Source: an uncultured bacterium (lineage in GTDB: Bacteria > Chlamydiota > Chlamydiia > Chlamydiales > 2-12-FULL-49-11). From it: DNA of 64,000 nt. Each line of letters starts with the position of its first letter. Position 1 is the first letter of the stretch. Under the pieces are notes generated by a model. It made no database searches, was not told the DNA's origin, and saw only the letters and a program-made list of their open reading frames with translations. Both the position numbers and the translations under genes were made by a program. This document shows positions 6,445 to 27,991 of the stretch, in pieces. The stretch is from the NCBI GenBank assembly GCA_964350315.1, contig CAYGJD010000007.1, forward strand, positions 17,487-81,486. The letters are read 5' to 3'.

Positions 6445-7227
6445 ATGATTGAAATGGGCCTTACAGCTGCAGCAACGTGGAGTGTTTTACCCCTTATGAG
6501 GGCAACTCCTCTCCTTACGCAATTTGGATCTAGCGAGGGGCTTAAAAAGGATCAAGCTTTAGTTGATAACTTGAGATTTCGTATGAAAATTTCAAAAGAA
6601 ATTATAGTCAAGCAAACGCCTGCAAATGGATATTTTGAGTTTGCTGCCTTTGGCGCGTTAGCCCTCCCATTTGAACAGTCATTTCTTGTTCCACAACTTG
6701 GATCTGAAGATTGGGAAAGTGTTCCAGAACATCAACGTCCCTTCATATATGCTCATGAAATCGCTCATATCGAAGCAAATGATATACTAAAAATGTCTTT
6801 TATTGCCTTAATTACTCATATTGGCGTGACAGTTATTGTAGTTTTTCTCCTTCCAATTGAGATAGCATATGCAATCGGTGGAGTTTGTGCCTTTTCTGCA
6901 GTGGTTCTCTATTCAAGACATATAGAAAAGAGGGCAGATTTACGAGCTTGCGAAGTTTTAACAGATGAGGAAATTGCAAATGGTATCCTTTTTTTTGAAG
7001 GGATGAGACATGAGCAAAAACTTATTCGATTAGAAGCAATGCAAGGAAATTCATTAAGAGATCTCTGGGACAGAACATTTATAGATGACCAAGGCAATTA
7101 TTCAATGGATGTGTTTCATCCACCCCTTACTGATAGAATTTCGTATATGAAACAATCGATCAGGGATCAGAGAGTAATTGAAAAATTAGATAATGTTCTA
7201 CGGGATCTGCAAAGGAAACCTTTGTAG
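6445..7227 (+). CDS. minimal M48-like membrane zinc metalloprotease (paralog 1)
   Basis: HEIAHIEAND (HExxH) followed by TM segments, then EKRADLRACEVL (E-x-x-AD third-ligand motif) and a C-terminal HPPLTDRISYM, as in M48/HtpX-type peptidases. Confidence 0.65.
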   Translation: MIEMGLTAAATWSVLPLMRATPLLTQFGSSEGLKKDQALVDNLRFRMKISKEIIVKQTPANGYFEFAAFGALALPFEQSFLVPQLGSEDWESVPEHQRPFIYAHEIAHIEANDILKMSFIALITHIGVTVIVVFLLPIEIAYAIGGVCAFSAVVLYSRHIEKRADLRACEVLTDEEIANGILFFEGMRHEQKLIRLEAMQGNSLRDLWDRTFIDDQGNYSMDVFHPPLTDRISYMKQSIRDQRVIEKLDNVLRDLQRKPL

Positions 7228-7956
7228 ATGGAAATTTTAGCTGGTGCTACAGTCGGTCAATCGCTTTCCATGTTAGTATCAATGTCTACAACAAGTTCGA
7301 AAGATCAAGAAATCACAGAGCCAAAACTTTTGATGCTTTTTAATGAAATGAAAACCCGAATGGGTTTAGATAAGAGCGATATATCCTTAAAAAGCAATTC
7401 TGAAATTAACTCGATTTGCGCAACTGGATCCTTGCTTTTTGGGTGCAAGGGAGTGGTTGTAATGAACTCATCAGACTATTTCAAAGGAAAGTCAGACGCT
7501 ACTATTTCTGCAGTTTTTGCGCATGAACTTTCTCATCTTAAGAACTATGATTCAACTCGATTGCCAGCATTTGTCTTTCTTGTCCAATTAATATCAGGTG
7601 TCGCTTTGATGATACTATTTTCTACTCCTGTTCTTCCGGCATTCCTCATCTCTTTTGCATTAACAGCAGCAACCAGTTTTTTTGCGTTTCTTCCTTATAT
7701 AGAGATGCAAGCAGAAGAGTCTATGGGTGATTCGTTAAATGATAAAGAGCTTGCTTTATACATTGAATATCAAAAAAAGCAACTGCAAACTGCAATAAAT
7801 ATTCGTGCTAATCTTGATTATAGTTTCTTTGACCGCATGAGATATAGTGAAGAGGGGAATATTCGTACAGATTTCACTCACCCTTGTAGAACTAGTGTTG
7901 TTGCAATGCTAGAGAAAAAGCTTGCAGCAAGAAGGGTTGCGACAATCTCAGTTTAG
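7228..7956 (+). CDS. minimal M48-like membrane zinc metalloprotease (paralog 2)
   Basis: HELSHLKNYD, TM segments, EMQAEES, and a C-terminal THPCRTSVVAML. It starts immediately after the stop of paralog 1. Confidence 0.6.
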   Translation: MEILAGATVGQSLSMLVSMSTTSSKDQEITEPKLLMLFNEMKTRMGLDKSDISLKSNSEINSICATGSLLFGCKGVVVMNSSDYFKGKSDATISAVFAHELSHLKNYDSTRLPAFVFLVQLISGVALMILFSTPVLPAFLISFALTAATSFFAFLPYIEMQAEESMGDSLNDKELALYIEYQKKQLQTAINIRANLDYSFFDRMRYSEEGNIRTDFTHPCRTSVVAMLEKKLAARRVATISV

Positions 7957-19204: not shown

Positions 19205-21544
19205 ATGGATGCTACAAGATTAGAAAATATCGATTGTCATTTCCGAGCTGCGAATTATCTTTCTGTTGGGCAGATTTATTTGAAAGAGAATCCTTTTCTT
19301 TGCGAGCCGCTTAAAAAAGAGCATGTTAAGTCGAGATTGCTGGGGCATTGGGGGACTTCTCCTGGGTTGAATTTTATTTATTCGCATATCAATCGTTTGA
19401 TTCAGGATACAGGCGAGCAGTTTTTGTATGTGACGGGACCAGGTCATGGTGGTCCTGCGATTCGTGCAAATGTTTATCTTGAAGGAACAATGACTGAGGT
19501 TTATCCTGATATTGATTGGTCGGTCTCTGGTGCGCGTAAGTTGATGCGTGAGTTTTCTTGGCCATGTGGTGTGCCAAGTCATGTCTCTCCTCCAACTCCT
19601 GGTTCAATTCATGAGGGGGGTGAGCTTGGATATTCTTTAGTTCATGCTTTTGGTGCTGTGATGGATCATCCTGAGTTGAATGTTGTTTGTGTTGTGGGTG
19701 ATGGCGAAAGTGAAACTGGGCCGCTAGCTGCTAGTTGGCAATCGATTCGATTCATCAATCCTCAAAGGGATGGTTTGGTATTGCCAATCCTTCATTTGAA
19801 TGGTTTCAAGATTTCTGGTCCAACGTTATTTGGGCGGATGGATGATGAGCATTTAACGAAATATTTCGAGGGTTTGGGTTATCAGGTTCGTATCGTAGAT
19901 GGGGATGATCCTGCTCTGATGCACAAGGCTTTTTGGGAGTGTTTAGACTGGGCTCATGAAAAACTCAATGAGGTGCGAACTCTTCGAGGTCCTTTGAAGG
20001 AGCCTTCTCCTCTTCCATTAATTATTCTTCGAACACCGAAAGGTTGGACTGGACCGAAGTTCATTGATGGTAAAAAAATAGAGGGGTCGTTTCGATCCCA
20101 TCAAGTTCCTATGTCTGATGTAGTTTCAAATCCAGCTCATTTGGAAATTCTAGATGAGTGGATGAGAAGTTATAAACCAGAGGAATTATTCGATAACTCA
20201 GGAAAACCGAATGCTAAGGTATTGGCAAATATTCCTGAGGCAAATTTGCGAATGGGAGCGAGTAAGTACGCAAATGGCGGTCTTATACTAAAAGAATTAA
20301 AGATGCCTGATTATAAGAGCTATGCAGTTGCGGTCTCGCAGCCTGGAGGGGTTGAAGCAGAAGCGACTCGAGAGTTGGGAAAATTTGTTCGCGATATCAT
20401 GAAACAGAATATCGATAACTTTCGTGTCTTTTGCCCTGATGAAACAAATTCTAATCGATTTAACCACCTGTTTGATATAACAGATCGGATGTATGTCGGA
20501 GAAATAGAAGATGGCGATGAAGCTCTTTCTTCTGATGGGCGTGTGATGGAGGTTTTGAGTGAACACCTTTGTCAGGGATGGCTTGAGGGGTATTTGTTGA
20601 CAGGACGTCATGGTATTTTCCCTTGTTATGAGGCGTTTGCTTTGATTGTAGATTCGATGCTGAATCAACATGGTAAGTGGCTAAAAGCTTGTCTTGAGAT
20701 TCCGTGGAGAAAACCGATTGCGTCATTGAACTATCTTTTGACTTCTCATGCTTGGAGGCAAGATCACAATGGATATAGTCATCAAGGACCGGGATTTATT
20801 GATTCTGTAATGCAGAAAAAAAGCAATATCGCACGAATTTATCTGCCACCTGATGCAAACTGCTTACTTGCTATTGCAGACCATTGTTTTAGAAGTAAAA
20901 ACTATATAAATTTGATCATTGCGGGTAAGCAATCATCTCCTCAATGGCTTGATATGAAGAGTGCGATTGCTCATTGTCAGCGTGGCATTAGTAATTGGGA
21001 GTGGGCAAGTAATGATGGGGGTTCTCCTGATATTGTTTTTGCATCAGCTGGAGATACGCCCACACTTGAAATGATGGCTGCTGTGCAAATTCTTAAAGAA
21101 AGATTGCCAGATTTAAAAATTCGTGTGATTAATGTGGTTGATTTGTTCACTCTTTTAAGAACAGAAGATCATCCACATGGTATTGATGAGGAGACTTTTA
21201 ATGCTTTATTTACAGAAGACAAGAATGTGATTTTTGCTTTTCATGGCTATCCAAGAGTGATTCATGAATTAAAATATCGTAGAAAAAATCCAGAGCGCTT
21301 CCATGTCCAGGGGTATATTGAAGAAGGTACAACATCGACACCATTTGACATGGTTGTTTGTAATAAGATTAGTCGGTTCCATCTAGTGATTAAGGCGTTA
21401 GAGTTTTTGCCTCAAATTAAAACGCATGCAGCAGATATTGTCGAAGAGCTTAATCGCAAATTAGTGGAGCATAAAAGCTACATCGCACATCATGGGGAAG
21501 ATATGCCTGAAATCACCAACTGGAAATGGAACAATGGCAGATAA
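19205..21544 (+). CDS. xfp: xylulose-5-phosphate/fructose-6-phosphate phosphoketolase
   Basis: 779 aa. FRAANYLSVGQIYLKENPFL, LLGHWGTSPGLNFIYSHINRLI and EGGELGYSL are hallmark phosphoketolase segments. Confidence 0.9.
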   Translation: MDATRLENIDCHFRAANYLSVGQIYLKENPFLCEPLKKEHVKSRLLGHWGTSPGLNFIYSHINRLIQDTGEQFLYVTGPGHGGPAIRANVYLEGTMTEVYPDIDWSVSGARKLMREFSWPCGVPSHVSPPTPGSIHEGGELGYSLVHAFGAVMDHPELNVVCVVGDGESETGPLAASWQSIRFINPQRDGLVLPILHLNGFKISGPTLFGRMDDEHLTKYFEGLGYQVRIVDGDDPALMHKAFWECLDWAHEKLNEVRTLRGPLKEPSPLPLIILRTPKGWTGPKFIDGKKIEGSFRSHQVPMSDVVSNPAHLEILDEWMRSYKPEELFDNSGKPNAKVLANIPEANLRMGASKYANGGLILKELKMPDYKSYAVAVSQPGGVEAEATRELGKFVRDIMKQNIDNFRVFCPDETNSNRFNHLFDITDRMYVGEIEDGDEALSSDGRVMEVLSEHLCQGWLEGYLLTGRHGIFPCYEAFALIVDSMLNQHGKWLKACLEIPWRKPIASLNYLLTSHAWRQDHNGYSHQGPGFIDSVMQKKSNIARIYLPPDANCLLAIADHCFRSKNYINLIIAGKQSSPQWLDMKSAIAHCQRGISNWEWASNDGGSPDIVFASAGDTPTLEMMAAVQILKERLPDLKIRVINVVDLFTLLRTEDHPHGIDEETFNALFTEDKNVIFAFHGYPRVIHELKYRRKNPERFHVQGYIEEGTTSTPFDMVVCNKISRFHLVIKALEFLPQIKTHAADIVEELNRKLVEHKSYIAHHGEDMPEITNWKWNNGR

Positions 21545-22511
21545 TATTTTAGTTCTCAATAGTGGGTCTTCTTCTTTGAAGTATTCCTATGCAGATAAAA
21601 GTGGGGCATTTGGTGATCTTGATTCGTTAGATGACCAAATTGAGGCATCAGACAAAATTCAAAATATTGATCCAGCTGCGATTGGTCATCGAGTCGTCTT
21701 TGGCGGAACAGAATTTCTTCAACCTGTTGTGATTGATGAAAATGTGATGGCTAAGTTACATAAACTATCTTTGTTTGCTCATTTCCATATGTCGATAGAA
21801 ATTGCTCTAATTAAAAAGATGCAAAAACGATTCCCTAATGTGAAACAAGTTGCTTGCTTTGATACAAGCTTTCACCGGTCGATGCCAGAAAAAGCTAAGT
21901 TGCTTGGCCTTTCTCAATCTTTACATCAAGAAGGTGTACAGAAGTATGGATTTCACGGCATTTCGTATGAATCGATTTTAGCACAGATGAAAAATGTCCC
22001 TAAAAGATTAGTGATAGCTCATCTTGGAGGTGGGGCGTCGATTTGTGCATTGAAAGATGGAAAAAGTGTTGATACTTCAATGGGATTAACTCCTCTTGGA
22101 GGTTTAATGATGAACACAAGACCTGGTGATCTCGATCCAGGTGTCATACTCTATTTGCTTAAAGAGAAAAAAATGAGCATTGATGATCTCGAGTATTTTC
22201 TCTATCACGATTCAGGGTTGAAAGGGATTTCTGGAAAACCTGCCGGCATGAAAGCACTTTTTGAAGAAAAACAATCTCCTGCGATTGAACACTATTGTTA
22301 CCGTGTTGCAAAAACGATTGGAAGTTATCATGTTGTTCTTGGCGGCATTGATAAGCTTGTTTTCACAGGTGGCGTTGGAGAAAATGAGAAAGAAATTCGG
22401 GAGATGATTTGCGATCAACTTAAAGTTCTTGGATTATCACAAGATCAAATTGTTGCAATGCCCTCGCAAGAAGAAAAAATGATTAAAGAGCATACGCAAC
22501 GCCTACTTTAA
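21534..22511 (+). CDS. ackA: acetate kinase (compact, about 325 aa)
   Basis: Start trimmed to MADNILVLNSGSSSLKYS. GHRVVFGG, FDTSFH, YGFHGISYE, HLGGGASICA, NTRPGDLDPG and FTGGVGEN are present. Overlaps the xfp stop by 11 nt. Confidence 0.8.
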   Translation: MADNILVLNSGSSSLKYSYADKSGAFGDLDSLDDQIEASDKIQNIDPAAIGHRVVFGGTEFLQPVVIDENVMAKLHKLSLFAHFHMSIEIALIKKMQKRFPNVKQVACFDTSFHRSMPEKAKLLGLSQSLHQEGVQKYGFHGISYESILAQMKNVPKRLVIAHLGGGASICALKDGKSVDTSMGLTPLGGLMMNTRPGDLDPGVILYLLKEKKMSIDDLEYFLYHDSGLKGISGKPAGMKALFEEKQSPAIEHYCYRVAKTIGSYHVVLGGIDKLVFTGGVGENEKEIREMICDQLKVLGLSQDQIVAMPSQEEKMIKEHTQRLL

Positions 22512-23742: not shown

Positions 23743-24150
23743 TTAACTTTCTAGATCAGGAAGGTTTTCCCACCATATCTTTTCCGCCTTGATTGTGATT
23801 GTAGTAAAATCATTTACATTTGGATGTGGAGGATAATTTCCCCACTGGATGCCTAGTGAAACAGTAGAATTGTTATCCATTTCAAAATCTAAAATTTCTG
23901 CTGAGTCGTAATCTTTTGTTAAAATACCAAGAAACAATTTCTCATCGACTTCAATGCCTTTTATGTTAGAAATATGCAATTTCCCCTTAATTCGATCATC
24001 TGAGGATAAAACAATATTGCCTGGCAGTTCCTCAGGATCAACTTCGGAACTTTTCATAGACAAAACAATAGTCTTTCCTTGATGGTTAATGCCAAGTAAA
24101 GAGCCATCATGGAAAAAATCCTTGTATATAGAAATATTCATATTAATCAT
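23743..24150 (-). CDS. putative immunity protein of the orphan toxin cassette
   Basis: Lies 12 nt downstream of the orphan toxin tip. Paralog of 26050-26493: shared FHDGSL, IKGK and a C-terminal WWEN(L/I)PDLE(S/T). Confidence 0.55.
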   Translation of the reverse strand: MINMNISIYKDFFHDGSLLGINHQGKTIVLSMKSSEVDPEELPGNIVLSSDDRIKGKLHISNIKGIEVDEKLFLGILTKDYDSAEILDFEMDNNSTVSLGIQWGNYPPHPNVNDFTTITIKAEKIWWENLPDLES

Positions 24151-24162
24151 CCTTAACCGTTT

Positions 24163-24612
24163 TTACCACCAAACCCAATCTGGAGGATATAGATGAGATG
24201 CTTCACTACCCTCTGAGACAGATCTTCCTCGTGCATCTAAGTAGGCGTCATGCTCTCCAGTTTTATTTGGATTTGGTCGATGATAATGATCGTGAGATTT
24301 GTGACCAAACTTACCGGGTTTTGCTTCATCTAACCTAATCTCTTCGCCTGTTTCTTTATTTCTGTAATTATGATGTCCATTACTTTTAGCCTTGGGATGG
24401 CTAACGTCTTCCCAATTTTTATCTTTTTTAGGATTTTTTGGAAGAGTGGGATCAACTCCACCTTTCTTACTTCTTTCCATCGTATTGAGGTCAAAAGAAG
24501 AATCATCGTGAGTCTCTTTGTAATGTTTATAGCCTTTGTAGCCCCAATATCCAATGGTAGCACCGGTTTCTGCCGCTAAAGCATAGGGAGCCCAAAACGG
24601 AATTTTAACCAC
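24163..24612 (-). CDS. orphan RHS C-terminal toxin tip (no RHS body, GTG-only start)
   Basis: Homologous to the C-terminal roughly 150 aa of 26514-27341: GYWGYKGYKHYKETHDDSSFDLNTMERSKKG, NGHH, SHDHYHRPNPN, SHLYPPDWVWW. The frame is closed by a TGA 4 codons upstream of the GTG. Confidence 0.6.
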   Translation of the reverse strand: MVKIPFWAPYALAAETGATIGYWGYKGYKHYKETHDDSSFDLNTMERSKKGGVDPTLPKNPKKDKNWEDVSHPKAKSNGHHNYRNKETGEEIRLDEAKPGKFGHKSHDHYHRPNPNKTGEHDAYLDARGRSVSEGSEASHLYPPDWVWW

Positions 24613-24775
24613 ATCCAGAGGTCAACCTTTACCTAGTGTTCTCCTCTCACACTCTTTTAACGCTTGTTTAGTTAGAGCGTAGTATGGTAAACTTGCTCCC
24701 CAAATTATATTAATTTATTGCTCAGTGGCTCTTCCATTGGCCCATGGTTCAAAAACGAGACTATTCTAATCACAA

Positions 24776-25546
24776 ATGAATATATATTATTCTCTAAAAC
24801 ACACATATTATGAGCTCAGGGATTGCTGCCAACCCAAAGCTGTCTATAATGAAGATCTCGGCGATTTGCCACAGTATGTTGAAGATTTGACGAGTCGAAT
24901 GAATTATGAAAAAAAAGTGCATCTTTCTTGGGCAGAAGGAAGTGACATCACGATGAGAGCTAGTTTTGGTTTTTGGAAATCTGGTATCATTGAGGTTCCA
25001 TGGGAATGTAAGAAATTTTTCTTAGATACTAGTAAGTGGACCAGAGTTTGTGCTACTAGAGCCAGCTTAGCACATGAATTAGTTCATCTTAAACTTCACC
25101 ATGTACAAAAACAGATTCTTGTGCAATTGCTTATCTCAGCGATTGTTATGATTGTATTTTCAGCTACACTTTGTGTCATTATTGCTTTCGCAATTGATTA
25201 TTTTCTAACTCCACGAGTTCTCAATTACTACATTAGATATCATGAAAAACAGGCAGACTTACTTGCCTGCGAGGTATTAACAGAGAATGAATTATGTGCC
25301 GCCGTTTGTTATTTGGAAAGAGAAAGAATCTATAATATCAAAGACTATTTATCGACAGAAAAAAAGAACAAGACGAAGTCTGTTTTTAACAAATTCCCCC
25401 AAAAATGCACAGAAGAAGGAAATATCATAGCGGATGTGGAACACTATCCATTAAGTGAAAGGATATGTTATCTGAGAGAAAGGATTAAAACTGAGAAAGG
25501 AAAAAAGTACATATCGGAGTACTTCTCTTATCTCAAGCAAATTTAA
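24776..25546 (+). CDS. minimal M48-like membrane zinc metalloprotease (paralog 3)
   Basis: HELVHLKLHH, TM segments, HEKQADLLACEVLTENEL and EHYPLSERICYL; collinear with 6445-7227. Confidence 0.6.
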   Translation: MNIYYSLKHTYYELRDCCQPKAVYNEDLGDLPQYVEDLTSRMNYEKKVHLSWAEGSDITMRASFGFWKSGIIEVPWECKKFFLDTSKWTRVCATRASLAHELVHLKLHHVQKQILVQLLISAIVMIVFSATLCVIIAFAIDYFLTPRVLNYYIRYHEKQADLLACEVLTENELCAAVCYLERERIYNIKDYLSTEKKNKTKSVFNKFPQKCTEEGNIIADVEHYPLSERICYLRERIKTEKGKKYISEYFSYLKQI

Positions 25547-25861
25547 TGAGGTCAGCGTTAGATAAGGATTTAAGGCCTAAAGGAAATCAATTGGTCGGTT
25601 GAGGAAGAAAAAGGCTGTTCTATGACTCTCAAGTTGGTTAGACGATTTCATTTTCTTGTTATATACCGATCGCACTTCAAAAACTGGAGTTTCTGCGCCG
25701 CCAAAACCCTTTCCATTATCCATTGTTTAAAAATTTTTGCTATATTGGCTCTTTTTAACGATAAAAGGAACTTTTTATAGGAATTACGCAAATACTCAAG
25801 AATGGGCGACAACGAGTTTTGCCAACGCGCTTCTCTTGAATAAAACTAAAAGTAAGATGAC

Positions 25862-26058
25862 TTATAAATATCGCAGCTAGACTGGCAGAAGCAAAAGGGA
25901 GTAGCCTTGCTATTCGTTTTGATAACTGGCATGATACTAAGGCTACATATAATCTACTTAAGCAGCCAATTATGACGCCAGATTCCATTCAAAATCCTCT
26001 TTTACAGAGAGAGAAGTTACGTAAAAAATACGGGAAAAAGAGCACATGTTTAAGTTTC
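25862..26058 (+). pseudogene. IS4/Tn5-like transposase N-terminal remnant
   Basis: A start-less open frame, LINIAARLAEAKGSSLAIRFDNWHDTKATYNLLKQPIMTPDSIQNPLLQ, aligns by eye with the Tn5 transposase N-terminal DNA-binding region (LVNVAAQLAKYSGKSITISS...AYRFIRNPNVSAEAI). A TGA lies immediately upstream and no DDE domain follows. Confidence 0.4.
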
Positions 26059-26493
26059 TAGATCTGGGATATTTTCCCACCATACATCCTTTACATCGAT
26101 AGTAATAGTAGAACAATCATCGACTCTATTTTTAGGAGGGTAATTAATCCAAATAACGTGCAAAAGCACTTCATTATCTTTGATTCTAAAACGAAAAATG
26201 TCCCCATCATCGTAGTTCATTTTTAAAGGGGTTGCAAGTTTTTTATTATCAATATAAATATTTTTGAGTCCATTTAAATGAAGTTTTCCCTTTATTTGTT
26301 TTAAATAAATCTTTCCCTTTATTCGCCCTTCTTTTGAAAGAGGAATAGGATCCTTGATATCTTCGGAATGAACTTCTGCACTTTCCATGGTTAAAATAAG
26401 TTCACCCTCATTTTTGCCATATTCAATTGCAATCAATGATCCATCATGAAAATAAGACGTGTATTTAGAAATAGTTGCTTTATCAATATACAT
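26050..26493 (-). CDS. putative immunity protein of the RHS toxin
   Basis: Starts 20 nt downstream of the RHS toxin stop. Paralog of 23743-24150. Confidence 0.6.
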   Translation of the reverse strand: MYIDKATISKYTSYFHDGSLIAIEYGKNEGELILTMESAEVHSEDIKDPIPLSKEGRIKGKIYLKQIKGKLHLNGLKNIYIDNKKLATPLKMNYDDGDIFRFRIKDNEVLLHVIWINYPPKNRVDDCSTITIDVKDVWWENIPDLET

Positions 26494-26513: not shown

Positions 26514-27913
26514 TTATTCCCACCACACCCATTCTGGCGGGTAAAGATGAGAGGCATCGCTATGTCTTCTGACTGGATTAAAATTCTTATCTAAATATTC
26601 ATCATGCTTGCCAGTTGAATTTGGATTTGGTCGATGATAGTGATCATGCGCCTCATGACCTGTATCTTTTGGATTTCCTTTATCTAATCTAATTTCTTCA
26701 CCTGTCTCTTTATTTTTGTACTTATGATGTCCATTTTTTTTTGCTTCTGGATGACTAACGTCCTCCCAATTTTTATCCTTCGTTGGATTTTTTGGAAGAG
26801 TAGGATCTACATCACCTTTTTTACTTCTTTCCATCGTATTGAGGTCAAAAGAAGAATCATCGTGAGTCTCTTTGTAATGTTTATAGCCTTTGTAGCCCCA
26901 ATATCCAATAGTAACACCAGCTGCTAACGCTGCTGCAGAGGGAGCCCAAATAGGCGCTGAGACGGCGGCTCCAGCTCCCCATGCTAAGCTTATAAGGGGC
27001 GCAGCTATGGCAAATTGTCCATCTGGATCGATAAAATTTGCAGGATCGCCCAAGCAATATAGATAAGGATCATCACTTTGCTGCATTGGATCAGGAGTTA
27101 GCCATTCTCTTAGTTCAGGAGAGTAATAGCGCTCTCCAAAGTAGACTAAATCTGCTTCTTTATCATAATATTTCCCTGAAAAGATCCAGGAAACAGGGGC
27201 GTTTTGATCAAGATCTACTCCGAATAAATCAGCTACAGCTAAAGGAATTTCCTTGCCCGTAGAAATGTCAATGAGTGCTGTGATTGTTCCTTGAAGATTT
27301 TGCACGGGTGCATAGATCGCATTTTGTGTTTCGATAGCCACAGGTCTTAAAATATCCTTATGTGCGGAAATTCCTGGAACCCGAAGCTCAATTACATTTC
27401 CTGTTTCATTAATGCGCGCAAGCTCATTAATGCCGTGATAAACATAGTATTCTGCTTGTCCATTAAGTGTTCTAGAAATTCATTTCCTGTTGAGTCGTAT
27501 TCATATTCAATGATGTCTTTTGGAGTAGTTACTCGAATTAAGCGATTTTGCTTATCATAGGCAAACATTTTATTCTCTAATCGAATGAGATTTCCTAAAG
27601 AATCATACTCTGTAGATAATTGTGTATTTCGTTCTTTGCGATCAGTTTGTTCATCTACGGAATCGAAGTTGTTGTGATAAAATCTTTCCCCTAATACATT
27701 CGTTAAGCATTCAGAAATAAGTTTTCCTTGTTCATCATAGTCATATGAACATGTATACATGATCTCATCTATTTTTGAGAGTCTCTCGATTTGATTAATC
27801 TGGACACCATCTGTGAAATAACGAACACACCCATGATCACATAATTTTAAAGTATGAACATCAGAGCTAAGGGATGCAATAAAACAGAAAAAAAGAGAAA
27901 GAAAAAATCTCAT
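26514..27913 (-). pseudogene. short Sec-signal RHS/YD-repeat polymorphic toxin, interrupted by a 1-nt frameshift
   Basis: N-part ORF 27392-27913: signal MRFFLSLFFCFIASLSS and YD repeats YDYDEQGKLISE, EYDSLGNLIRLENKMFAYDKQNRLIRV, EYEYDSTGNE. The frame of the C-part ORF (26514-27341) is open up to 27479 (ISRTLNGQAEYYVYHGINELARINETGNVIELRVPG...), so one indel near 27479-27481 splits the gene. The C-part has the RHS core end YFGERYYSPELREWLTPDPMQQSDDPYLYCLGDPANFIDPDGQF followed by the toxin tip. Confidence 0.7.
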
Positions 27914-27991
27914 AAAGCTCTCCCAATATGAATGGTGAGACTATAGGAGAAATAATTTTTTTGTAAAGTTAAATCCCGTGAATTAAGAAAG

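Follow-up and report, generated by a model that had tools for sequence, protein, structure and literature searches.

Two putative toxin-immunity modules that share an 89-bp block

We analyzed a putative polymorphic-toxin locus in a 64,000-nucleotide (nt) stretch of DNA from an uncultured member of the Chlamydiota (GenBank assembly GCA_964350315.1, contig CAYGJD010000007.1, positions 17,487 to 81,486; G+C content 38%), hereafter the window. On the minus strand, the locus carries a small gene of the RHS type, the main gene, which ends in a predicted toxin domain (toxin M) and is followed by an immunity-like gene (immunity M). In the same orientation, 2.35 kb downstream (offset 2354), lies an orphan C-terminal toxin tip (toxin O) with an immunity-like gene of its own (immunity O). 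The sequences that precede the two toxin domains are identical over 89 bp.

The main gene is divided between two reading frames. Its 5' part (27392..27913) is a 173-amino-acid (aa) open reading frame (ORF) with a predicted Sec signal peptide (MRFFLSLFFCFIASLSS) and tyrosine-aspartate (YD) repeats, matching PF05593 RHS_repeat (E=8.4e-9) and TIGR01643 (E=2.1e-9). The 3' part (26514..27475), in another frame, contains further YD repeats, an Rhs core (Rhs_assc_core TIGR03696, 67.6 bits against a cut-off of 32.5), the motif DPANFIDPDGQ (27015-27047), a hydrophobic Gly/Ala-rich linker of about 40 aa (26892-27014), the pre-toxin junction and, at its C-terminal end, the 104-aa toxin domain M (26517-26834). 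The DPxG motif is of the PxxxxDPxG[L] autoproteolysis type, and cleavage is predicted there. Immunity M (147 aa, 26050..26493, minus strand) lies 20 nt 3' of the toxin stop codon.

The orphan tip (24163..24612, minus strand) consists of 19 diverged linker codons, a second copy of the 89-bp block and the 104-aa toxin domain O (24166-24480), which begins with MERSKKGG. The orphan ORF starts with GTG, TGA is the fourth codon upstream, and there is an internal ATG at codon 46 (MERSKK). It has no RHS body, DPxG motif or signal peptide, and nothing RHS-like was found upstream of it. Immunity O, an intact 135-aa ORF (23743..24150, minus strand), lies 12 nt after the orphan stop codon. Its likely start is the ATG at 24141, which has AAGGA 8 nt upstream and would give a 132-aa product, the length of gene call P0324. 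This anatomy is as described in a first-pass annotation of the window, which had reported an orphan without RHS body or ATG start, with a TGA four codons before its GTG and a diverged immunity-like gene of its own. The two tips are not different toxins: at 75.7% aa identity, they belong to one family. The two immunity proteins are only 41.5% identical, far below the tips, which suggests that they differ in specificity.

The annotation's central observation was the repeat itself. Positions 24467-24555 and 26821-26909, both read on the minus strand, match exactly, and the run cannot be extended in either direction at the offset of 2354. The block encodes GYWGYKGYKHYKETHDDSSFDLNTMERSKK and, in the main gene, comprises the last part of the linker together with the pre-toxin junction, (I)GYWGYKGYKHYKETHDDSSFDLNTMERSK; its translation places it between hydrophobic linker and toxin tip, as had been proposed. 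A repeat search and the BLASTN comparison that the annotation recommended both recovered a longer homology around the block (24163-24596 against 26514-26950, about 80% over 444 nt). The orphan and main coding sequences align without gaps over 149 codons (447 nt) with 99 differences. Within this alignment the longest difference-free run is 89 nt and the second longest 21 nt; when the 99 differences were placed at random 200,000 times, the longest run was 71 and never 89 (analytic P ~3e-8). Identity beside the block is 63% over 57 nt upstream and 74% over 301 nt downstream, close to the three quarters that the annotation had estimated by eye. The two genes thus share 45 codons before the toxin, of which the first 57 nt are 63% identical and the next 89 nt fully identical. 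In a three-way DNA alignment with a related locus, L053, the homology of the orphan ends upstream near 24600, at CCN-TTT/ATT-TGG-GCT-CC (P-F/I-W-A-P). Nei-Gojobori estimates of synonymous (dS) and nonsynonymous (dN) divergence between the copies follow the same division: dS 1.29 and dN 0.19 in the toxin domain, dS 0.61 and dN 0.47 in the linker, and zero for both in the block (15 synonymous sites); for the sequence outside the block, dS is about 1.0-1.3.

The two copies are supported by public raw data. Two biofilm metagenomes (runs X1 and X2) contain 87-92% of the words sampled from the window sequence, and others contain it in part. Both block copies were reproduced at 100% in Logan unitigs of four runs; these unitigs break at the block edges, and their depth roughly doubles over the block (for example, 16-23 against 7-14), which indicates a real two-copy repeat. 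In addition, contigs from independent studies link the block to the upstream flank of each copy (run X6, 24467-24658; run X7, 26816-27049).

What made the two copies identical? In other genomes the same stretch varies: it is 74-82% identical in loci L001 and L002 and about 45-50% in more distant loci, L053 departs from the copies in the window at 13 positions out of 89, and the protein segment that it encodes (KHYKETHDDSSFDLNT) ranks among the most variable parts of the family. As relatives vary in the block, constraint at the nucleotide level, including an RNA element, is ruled out as its cause; an Rfam search of the window returned only a tRNA, located elsewhere. The modules themselves appear from their divergence to be ancient paralogues that represent two immunity types of one toxin family. 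Given zero differences in the block, old-paralogue divergence on both sides of it and variation of the same stretch among relatives, the only reasonable reading of the sequences is a recent short-patch exchange, by gene conversion or recombination, between two old paralogues inside this genome. Either copy may have been the donor.

The frameshifted mini-RHS gene

The break in the main gene maps to 27476..27487 (minus strand; coding strand GGAAATGAATTT) and consists of the loss of 1 nt together with a substitution. Where the window reads GGAAATGAATT, relatives read GGAAAAAGAATT: they carry one extra base and a T->A change on the coding strand, which gives GGA AAA AGA (G K R), the consensus of intact homologues. 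Three-frame translation shows that the frameshift, at 27482-27485, splits the gene into ORFs of 173 and 275 aa; the 5' ORF, which aligns with residues 1-143 of the intact 462-465-aa homologues P0002-P0006, runs on after the frameshift to a TAA at 27392-27394. The contigs of this genome in runs X1, X2 and X4 all carry the same lesion, with no insertion or deletion relative to the window; the frameshift is therefore real and fixed in the sampled population. Related sequences in runs X3 and X8 carry the variants '+T behind 27482' and A>T at 27482 (plus strand). We also observed that, in runs X1-X4, at least two other sequences nearly identical to the 5' end of the gene (27796-27919) enter different upstream DNA, which points to further loci of this type, or further strains, in the same communities.

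An exact-protein database look-up with the main ORF gave no match. Its database relatives are intact, 462-465 aa long and 74-81% identical over their full length, and nearly all come from Chlamydiota metagenome-assembled genomes (MAGs). The homologues carry PF05593 and PF25023; in the main gene, with a total of about 464 aa, a predicted signal peptide precedes some 300 aa of YD repeats and Rhs_assc_core. A full-size, toxin-enclosing shell takes about 1,000 aa or more, well beyond this size, and the family profile aligns only with the C-terminal ~300 residues of the Rhs, Tc and teneurin shells that have been solved; we therefore call the gene a mini-RHS. The first-pass annotation had named it the main RHS gene. 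It was right about the type, given the YD repeats and core, and missed both the small size and the frameshift.

Because of the frameshift, there is at present no intact recipient for a tip swap, and neither tip could be exported by the normal route. Comparable damage occurs in relatives: the genes in L002-L004 are split into 269 and 213 aa, and that of L053 is both frameshifted and internally deleted.

The orphan toxin ORF is intact over its 149 codons, with a dN/dS of ~0.1-0.15, and all four genes, two toxins and two immunities, give values of 0.08-0.19 against their nearest relatives. Immunity M has a dN/dS of 0.19 against L001; immunity O is 85% identical at the protein level to its homologue in L012 (8585-8968), with a dN/dS of 0.08. 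By these ratios, toxins and immunity genes are shown to be under purifying selection. The function still being selected is most likely immunity against the toxins of neighbours.

Toxin and immunity families and the genes around them

To place the modules in context, we scanned one genome per species and found the toxin in 46 loci, mostly of Chlamydiota. A homologue of the immunity gene nearly always comes next, and in more than 30 loci it lies directly downstream. The immunity proteins would protect against their cognate toxins. A phmmer search of 1.84 billion representatives yielded 416 clusters of the toxin domain at 50% identity. The domain is always C-terminal, on proteins of ~100 to 1,900 aa. 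RHS carriers of 1,600-1,900 aa occur in other phyla, including Acidobacteriota, Vibrio and Brucella.

As the annotation had advised, we looked for alternative tips on the RHS body. At least five tip classes follow the GYxGYKxY junction: the present family, Ntox37, a KEGKQKDG type, a SEKAQEHY type and the P0029 type. The Ntox37 tips sit on the same chlamydial scaffold (P0030, P0034, P0035). The switch point between classes lies within or just after the junction; in P0015, for example, the junction is kept to '...DDSFLNLKTIEKRK' (..LNLKTIEKRK) and is then followed by a different toxin.

The orphan's own module type is found on an RHS body as well. In L053 (GCA_964418965.1, CAYQOA010000068.1, 1-1471), a body that is 82% identical in DNA to that of the window is joined directly to an O-type tip and its immunity gene; the O-type module is 81% identical over 861 nt to window 24600-23742. 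This fusion shows that the orphan's module type occurs on an RHS body elsewhere. The L053 gene lacks about 140 aa, comprising the Rhs core and DPxG motif, through a deletion between two 'TITA'-coding repeats. The endpoint of this deletion coincides with the 5' homology limit of the window orphan (~24600). The same contig also contains a toxin 3' fragment with an immunity gene, and an inverted toxin-immunity pair.

Arrays of tips and immunity genes recur among the relatives. L009 (1222-4295) has the order core-tox-imm-tox-imm-imm-tox fragment-imm; in this locus the stretch between the immunity 3' end and MERSKKGGVDDS occurs as a repeat, and one toxin copy has an internal deletion. L012 (5889-8968) has the order core-tox-imm-tox-imm-imm, its last immunity gene being the one that is 85% identical to immunity O. 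Arrays are also present in L037 and L007, and tandem immunity genes number six in L014 (10109-12757) and five in L017 (10001-12404). In L009 and L012 the orphan tips, too, begin essentially with MERSKKGG, and only 30-60 nt separate them from the gene before.

Ten residues are invariant in the toxin: D95, G103, H109, H111, N114, P115, L125, D126, S139 and H140. The core motif is DHYHRxNP...SH, within a fuller pattern of G[HR]xx[YF]xNxxTGExI..DHYHRxNP..SH. No Pfam or NCBIfam family matched the toxin, even at Pfam E<=10 and on the 1,600-1,900-aa RHS carriers. The AlphaFold2 (AF2) model of the toxin is confident over residues 50-149 (predicted local distance difference test, pLDDT, >93). In a Foldseek search of the PDB with this toxin model, the top hits were kinases at an E of 0.76 and carry no meaning, and a PDB sequence-profile search with the family matched the RHS part only, with no match for the toxin. 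The AF2 model of the immunity protein shows one helix and an antiparallel sheet (pLDDT 93.3). For this protein, the PDB profile search returned nothing, and the best Foldseek matches (E 0.022, lipocalins, TM score ~0.23) were not accepted.

From the invariance of D95, H109, H111, N114, D126 and H140, we would guess, with low confidence, that the toxin is a His-dependent hydrolase, possibly a nuclease. One of 38 members of the immunity family matches Imm50 (PF15594) weakly (E=5.5e-4), and the window proteins do not match it. The reported partner toxins of Imm50 are HNH-EHHH and Ntox24 (Zhang et al. 2012, PMC3482391). The weak match can serve as a lead only. Kinship of the toxin with Ntox37, Ntox24 or HNH-EHHH, as hinted at by motif resemblance and by Imm50, was not supported by any test.

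Two further elements lie between the modules, both on the plus strand. Abutting the 3' end of immunity M is a degenerate, frameshifted N-terminal remnant of a Tn5/IS4-type transposase (25800..26040), whose stitched translation matches PF14706 Tnp_DNA_bind (E=2.4e-7, 30.8 bits against a cut-off of 24). In L002-L004, too, a transposase gene directly follows the immunity gene. The second element is a 256-aa M48-like ORF with an HExxH motif (24776..25546; PF01435, E=1e-6), one of three paralogous HExxH M48-like membrane-protein ORFs in the window (24776-25546, 6445-7227 and 7228-7956), which are 26-28% identical. Among 50 related toxin loci, no M48-like copy stands beside a toxin module; the sole M48 match, a weak one given by a paralogue (26%, E=1.8e-8), falls in L020, some 8.5 kb away from the toxin. 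We therefore rejected this ORF as a part of the toxin system and consider it probably cargo or an unrelated gene.

The neighbouring housekeeping genes encode phosphoketolase and acetate kinase, RlmN and CyoABCDE (cyoABCDE). The acetate-kinase ORF (21492-22511, plus strand) is short: its 339 aa cover positions 86-377 of a 405-position model. It also shares 53 nt with the end of the phosphoketolase gene, and it may thus be truncated or frameshifted. The nearest named RlmN proteins come from MAGs of Chlamydiota, Chlamydiales or Simkaniaceae, one of them labelled Verrucomicrobia; together with the RHS homologues from the same groups, they agree with the annotation's view of an intracellular-symbiont-type genome. 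The closest RlmN-bearing contigs (79% and 69% aa identity) have only rlmN in common with the window.

Exchange, possible switching and known systems

We read these observations as a decaying polymorphic-toxin locus of the Chlamydiota, in which a putatively secreted mini-RHS and an orphan toxin/immunity module have recently exchanged their junctions, and we assign this reading a probability of about 0.7. In our model, the orphan module retains only the sequence from the second half of the linker onwards, and a short-patch homologous exchange made the two pre-toxin junctions identical over 89 bp. As the copies are direct repeats, a single crossover within the block would delete 2,354 bp. Such a deletion would take with it tip M, immunity M, the insertion-sequence (IS) remnant and the M48-like ORF, and would place tip O, followed directly by immunity O, in frame behind the RHS body. 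The first-pass annotation had described the orphan as a displaced module that can be swapped into the main gene. The architecture and the recent junction exchange bear out part of that description; the swap itself we infer, and it would today meet a broken main gene. We consider a capacity for switching plausible, by analogy with known systems, but no more than that, given the short homology arm, the frameshifted recipient and contigs that show no recombinant joint.

Several observations weigh against this interpretation. The main gene is a pseudogene here, and a switch would give no working toxin without reversion. A block of 89 bp is a short substrate for RecA-type recombination, and a simple crossover would also delete immunity M, which would be harmful if siblings still made toxin M. 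Recombinant subpopulations, which the annotation had suggested looking for, did not come to light: no deletion or chimera joint was found in the Logan contigs of eight runs, where rare variants drop out of the assembly. The orphans in L009 and L012 share no identical block with their own main genes; such a block is therefore no standard part of the family's design. Finally, toxicity and immunity are presumed, and neither the toxin nor the immunity protein matches a Pfam family or PDB fold.

The best surviving alternative, which we nevertheless regard as unlikely, holds that the orphan is the stump of a second, once full-length mini-RHS gene whose 5' two-thirds were lost when an IS caused a deletion or inserted there; it would then be debris, its conversion incidental, with no role in switching. 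Several features of the locus fit this account. A Tn5/IS4-type remnant and the unrelated M48-like ORF lie between the modules, and the transposase gene after the immunity gene recurs in L002-L004. The 19 diverged linker codons were kept (dS 0.6), as expected for a separate gene and not for a copy of the main gene. The main gene is itself decaying, and pseudogenised or deleted versions are common in relatives (frameshifted in L002-L004, internally deleted in L053). Against it, the orphan keeps an intact toxin ORF of 149 codons at a dN/dS of ~0.1-0.15, and the conversion tract means that the two copies do interact. Moreover, an origin as a stump and use as a recombination substrate are not mutually exclusive.

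Considerably less probable is that the orphan is expressed alone from its internal Met (MERSKKGG, 24478-24480) and forms, with immunity O, an intracellular pair resembling a toxin-antitoxin (TA) system. Salmonella offers a precedent, as Rhs CT/immunity pairs there are reported to have internal promoters and to behave as type-II TA systems (PMC7043789). The orphan tips of L009 and L012 begin at essentially the same residue, just after the preceding gene, many proteins of 100-200 aa consist of the toxin domain alone, and toxin and immunity genes are both under strong purifying selection. However, no convincing Shine-Dalgarno sequence or promoter precedes either start; promoter and terminator scans gave counts no higher than in shuffled sequence (promoter-like sites, 18 against 15.9). 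The Met is equally conserved in full-length genes and is replaced by Ile in P0007 and P0020, and the short database proteins may be fragments of gene calls.

That the block is an artefact of assembly or binning, with two strains or loci joined into a chimera in the MAG, is very unlikely: although the window derives from a metagenome and related mini-RHS variants coexist in the samples (variant contigs; alternative upstream sequences at 27916 and 27919), the exact copies in unitigs of four samples, the depth doubled precisely over the block and the X6 and X7 contigs that tie it to each copy's own flank all agree.

Two bolder readings reach past an ordinary orphan module, and we hold them to be doubtful. 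In the first, a compact mini-RHS exported through Sec may serve environmental chlamydiae as a weapon with switchable cassettes. In such a system, the homology arm would lie in the membrane-active linker of the released fragment and not in the RHS core, and silent tip/immunity cassettes would be exchanged by short-patch recombination, as in antigenic variation. In the second, the DHYHRxNP toxin and its beta-rich immunity protein may, judging from the confident models with no PDB match in Foldseek, have folds unseen in solved structures.

The locus shows, through a clear statistical signal, that toxin-tip cassettes in a lineage of the obligate-intracellular type still undergo homologous exchange. 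Arrays of tips and immunity genes across environmental Chlamydiota imply conflict of bacterium against bacterium, for example between co-infecting strains, in a phylum usually considered only for its relation to the host. The widespread toxin domain, absent from Pfam, and its partner immunity family, for which models are confident and solved relatives lacking, are easy targets for expression and structure determination. The 464-aa mini-RHS scaffold would have to deliver a toxin without a full shell.

Among known systems, the locus resembles the RHS polymorphic toxins exported through Sec (of the type II secretion system type), including those of Chlamydiae (PMC3482391), in its signal peptide, RHS repeats, variable toxin and immunity gene. 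Stand-alone toxin cassettes, polyimmunity arrays and Ntox37 tips on the same chlamydial scaffold extend the likeness. It differs from them in that toxin and immunity lack Pfam matches, apart from the weak Imm50 match of one family member in 38, and in that its RHS part falls far below a full shell. Reports on the Vibrio cholerae type VI secretion system (PMC5361080) and the esaG arrays of the type VII secretion system (PMC9484751) describe immunity and effector arrays that arise through sequential displacement or through recombination of tandem paralogues. The present family likewise has tandem toxin/immunity paralogues with signs of homologous exchange, and immunity genes that outlast their toxin, as in L012, L014 and L017. 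Those reports concern other secretion systems and toxin families, and the exchange tract here lies in the toxin junction and not in the immunity genes.

The closest reference is the orphan rhs-CT/rhsI of Enterobacteria, namely STM0291/STM0292 of Salmonella Typhimurium LT2 (Poole 2011, PMC3150448; Koskiniemi 2014, PMC3967940). In LT2, the homology between rhs-main and the orphan amounts to 522 bp at 95% identity, and the two recombine to a chimera once a duplication has secured the main immunity gene (PMC3967940). Here, as in LT2, an rhs gene is followed, in the same direction, by a headless tip and that tip's own immunity gene, a stretch of homology sits just upstream of the toxin, where recombination would graft the orphan tip onto the main body, and the immunity genes are much more diverged than the shared arm. 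Unlike the LT2 arm, that of the window spans 89 bp at 100% within a region of 63-74%, and it follows the DPxG motif, in the linker and junction of the predicted released fragment, instead of lying in the RHS core. Recombinants are known for LT2, and none was seen here in the contigs. The two tips here are members of a single toxin family, an IS remnant and an unrelated gene (about 1.4 kb) part the modules, and the main gene is a frameshifted 464-aa mini-RHS with a Sec signal. Thus, we regard the locus as an ordinary kind of system, an Rhs orphan CT/immunity module, in an unusual host and on an unusual scaffold.

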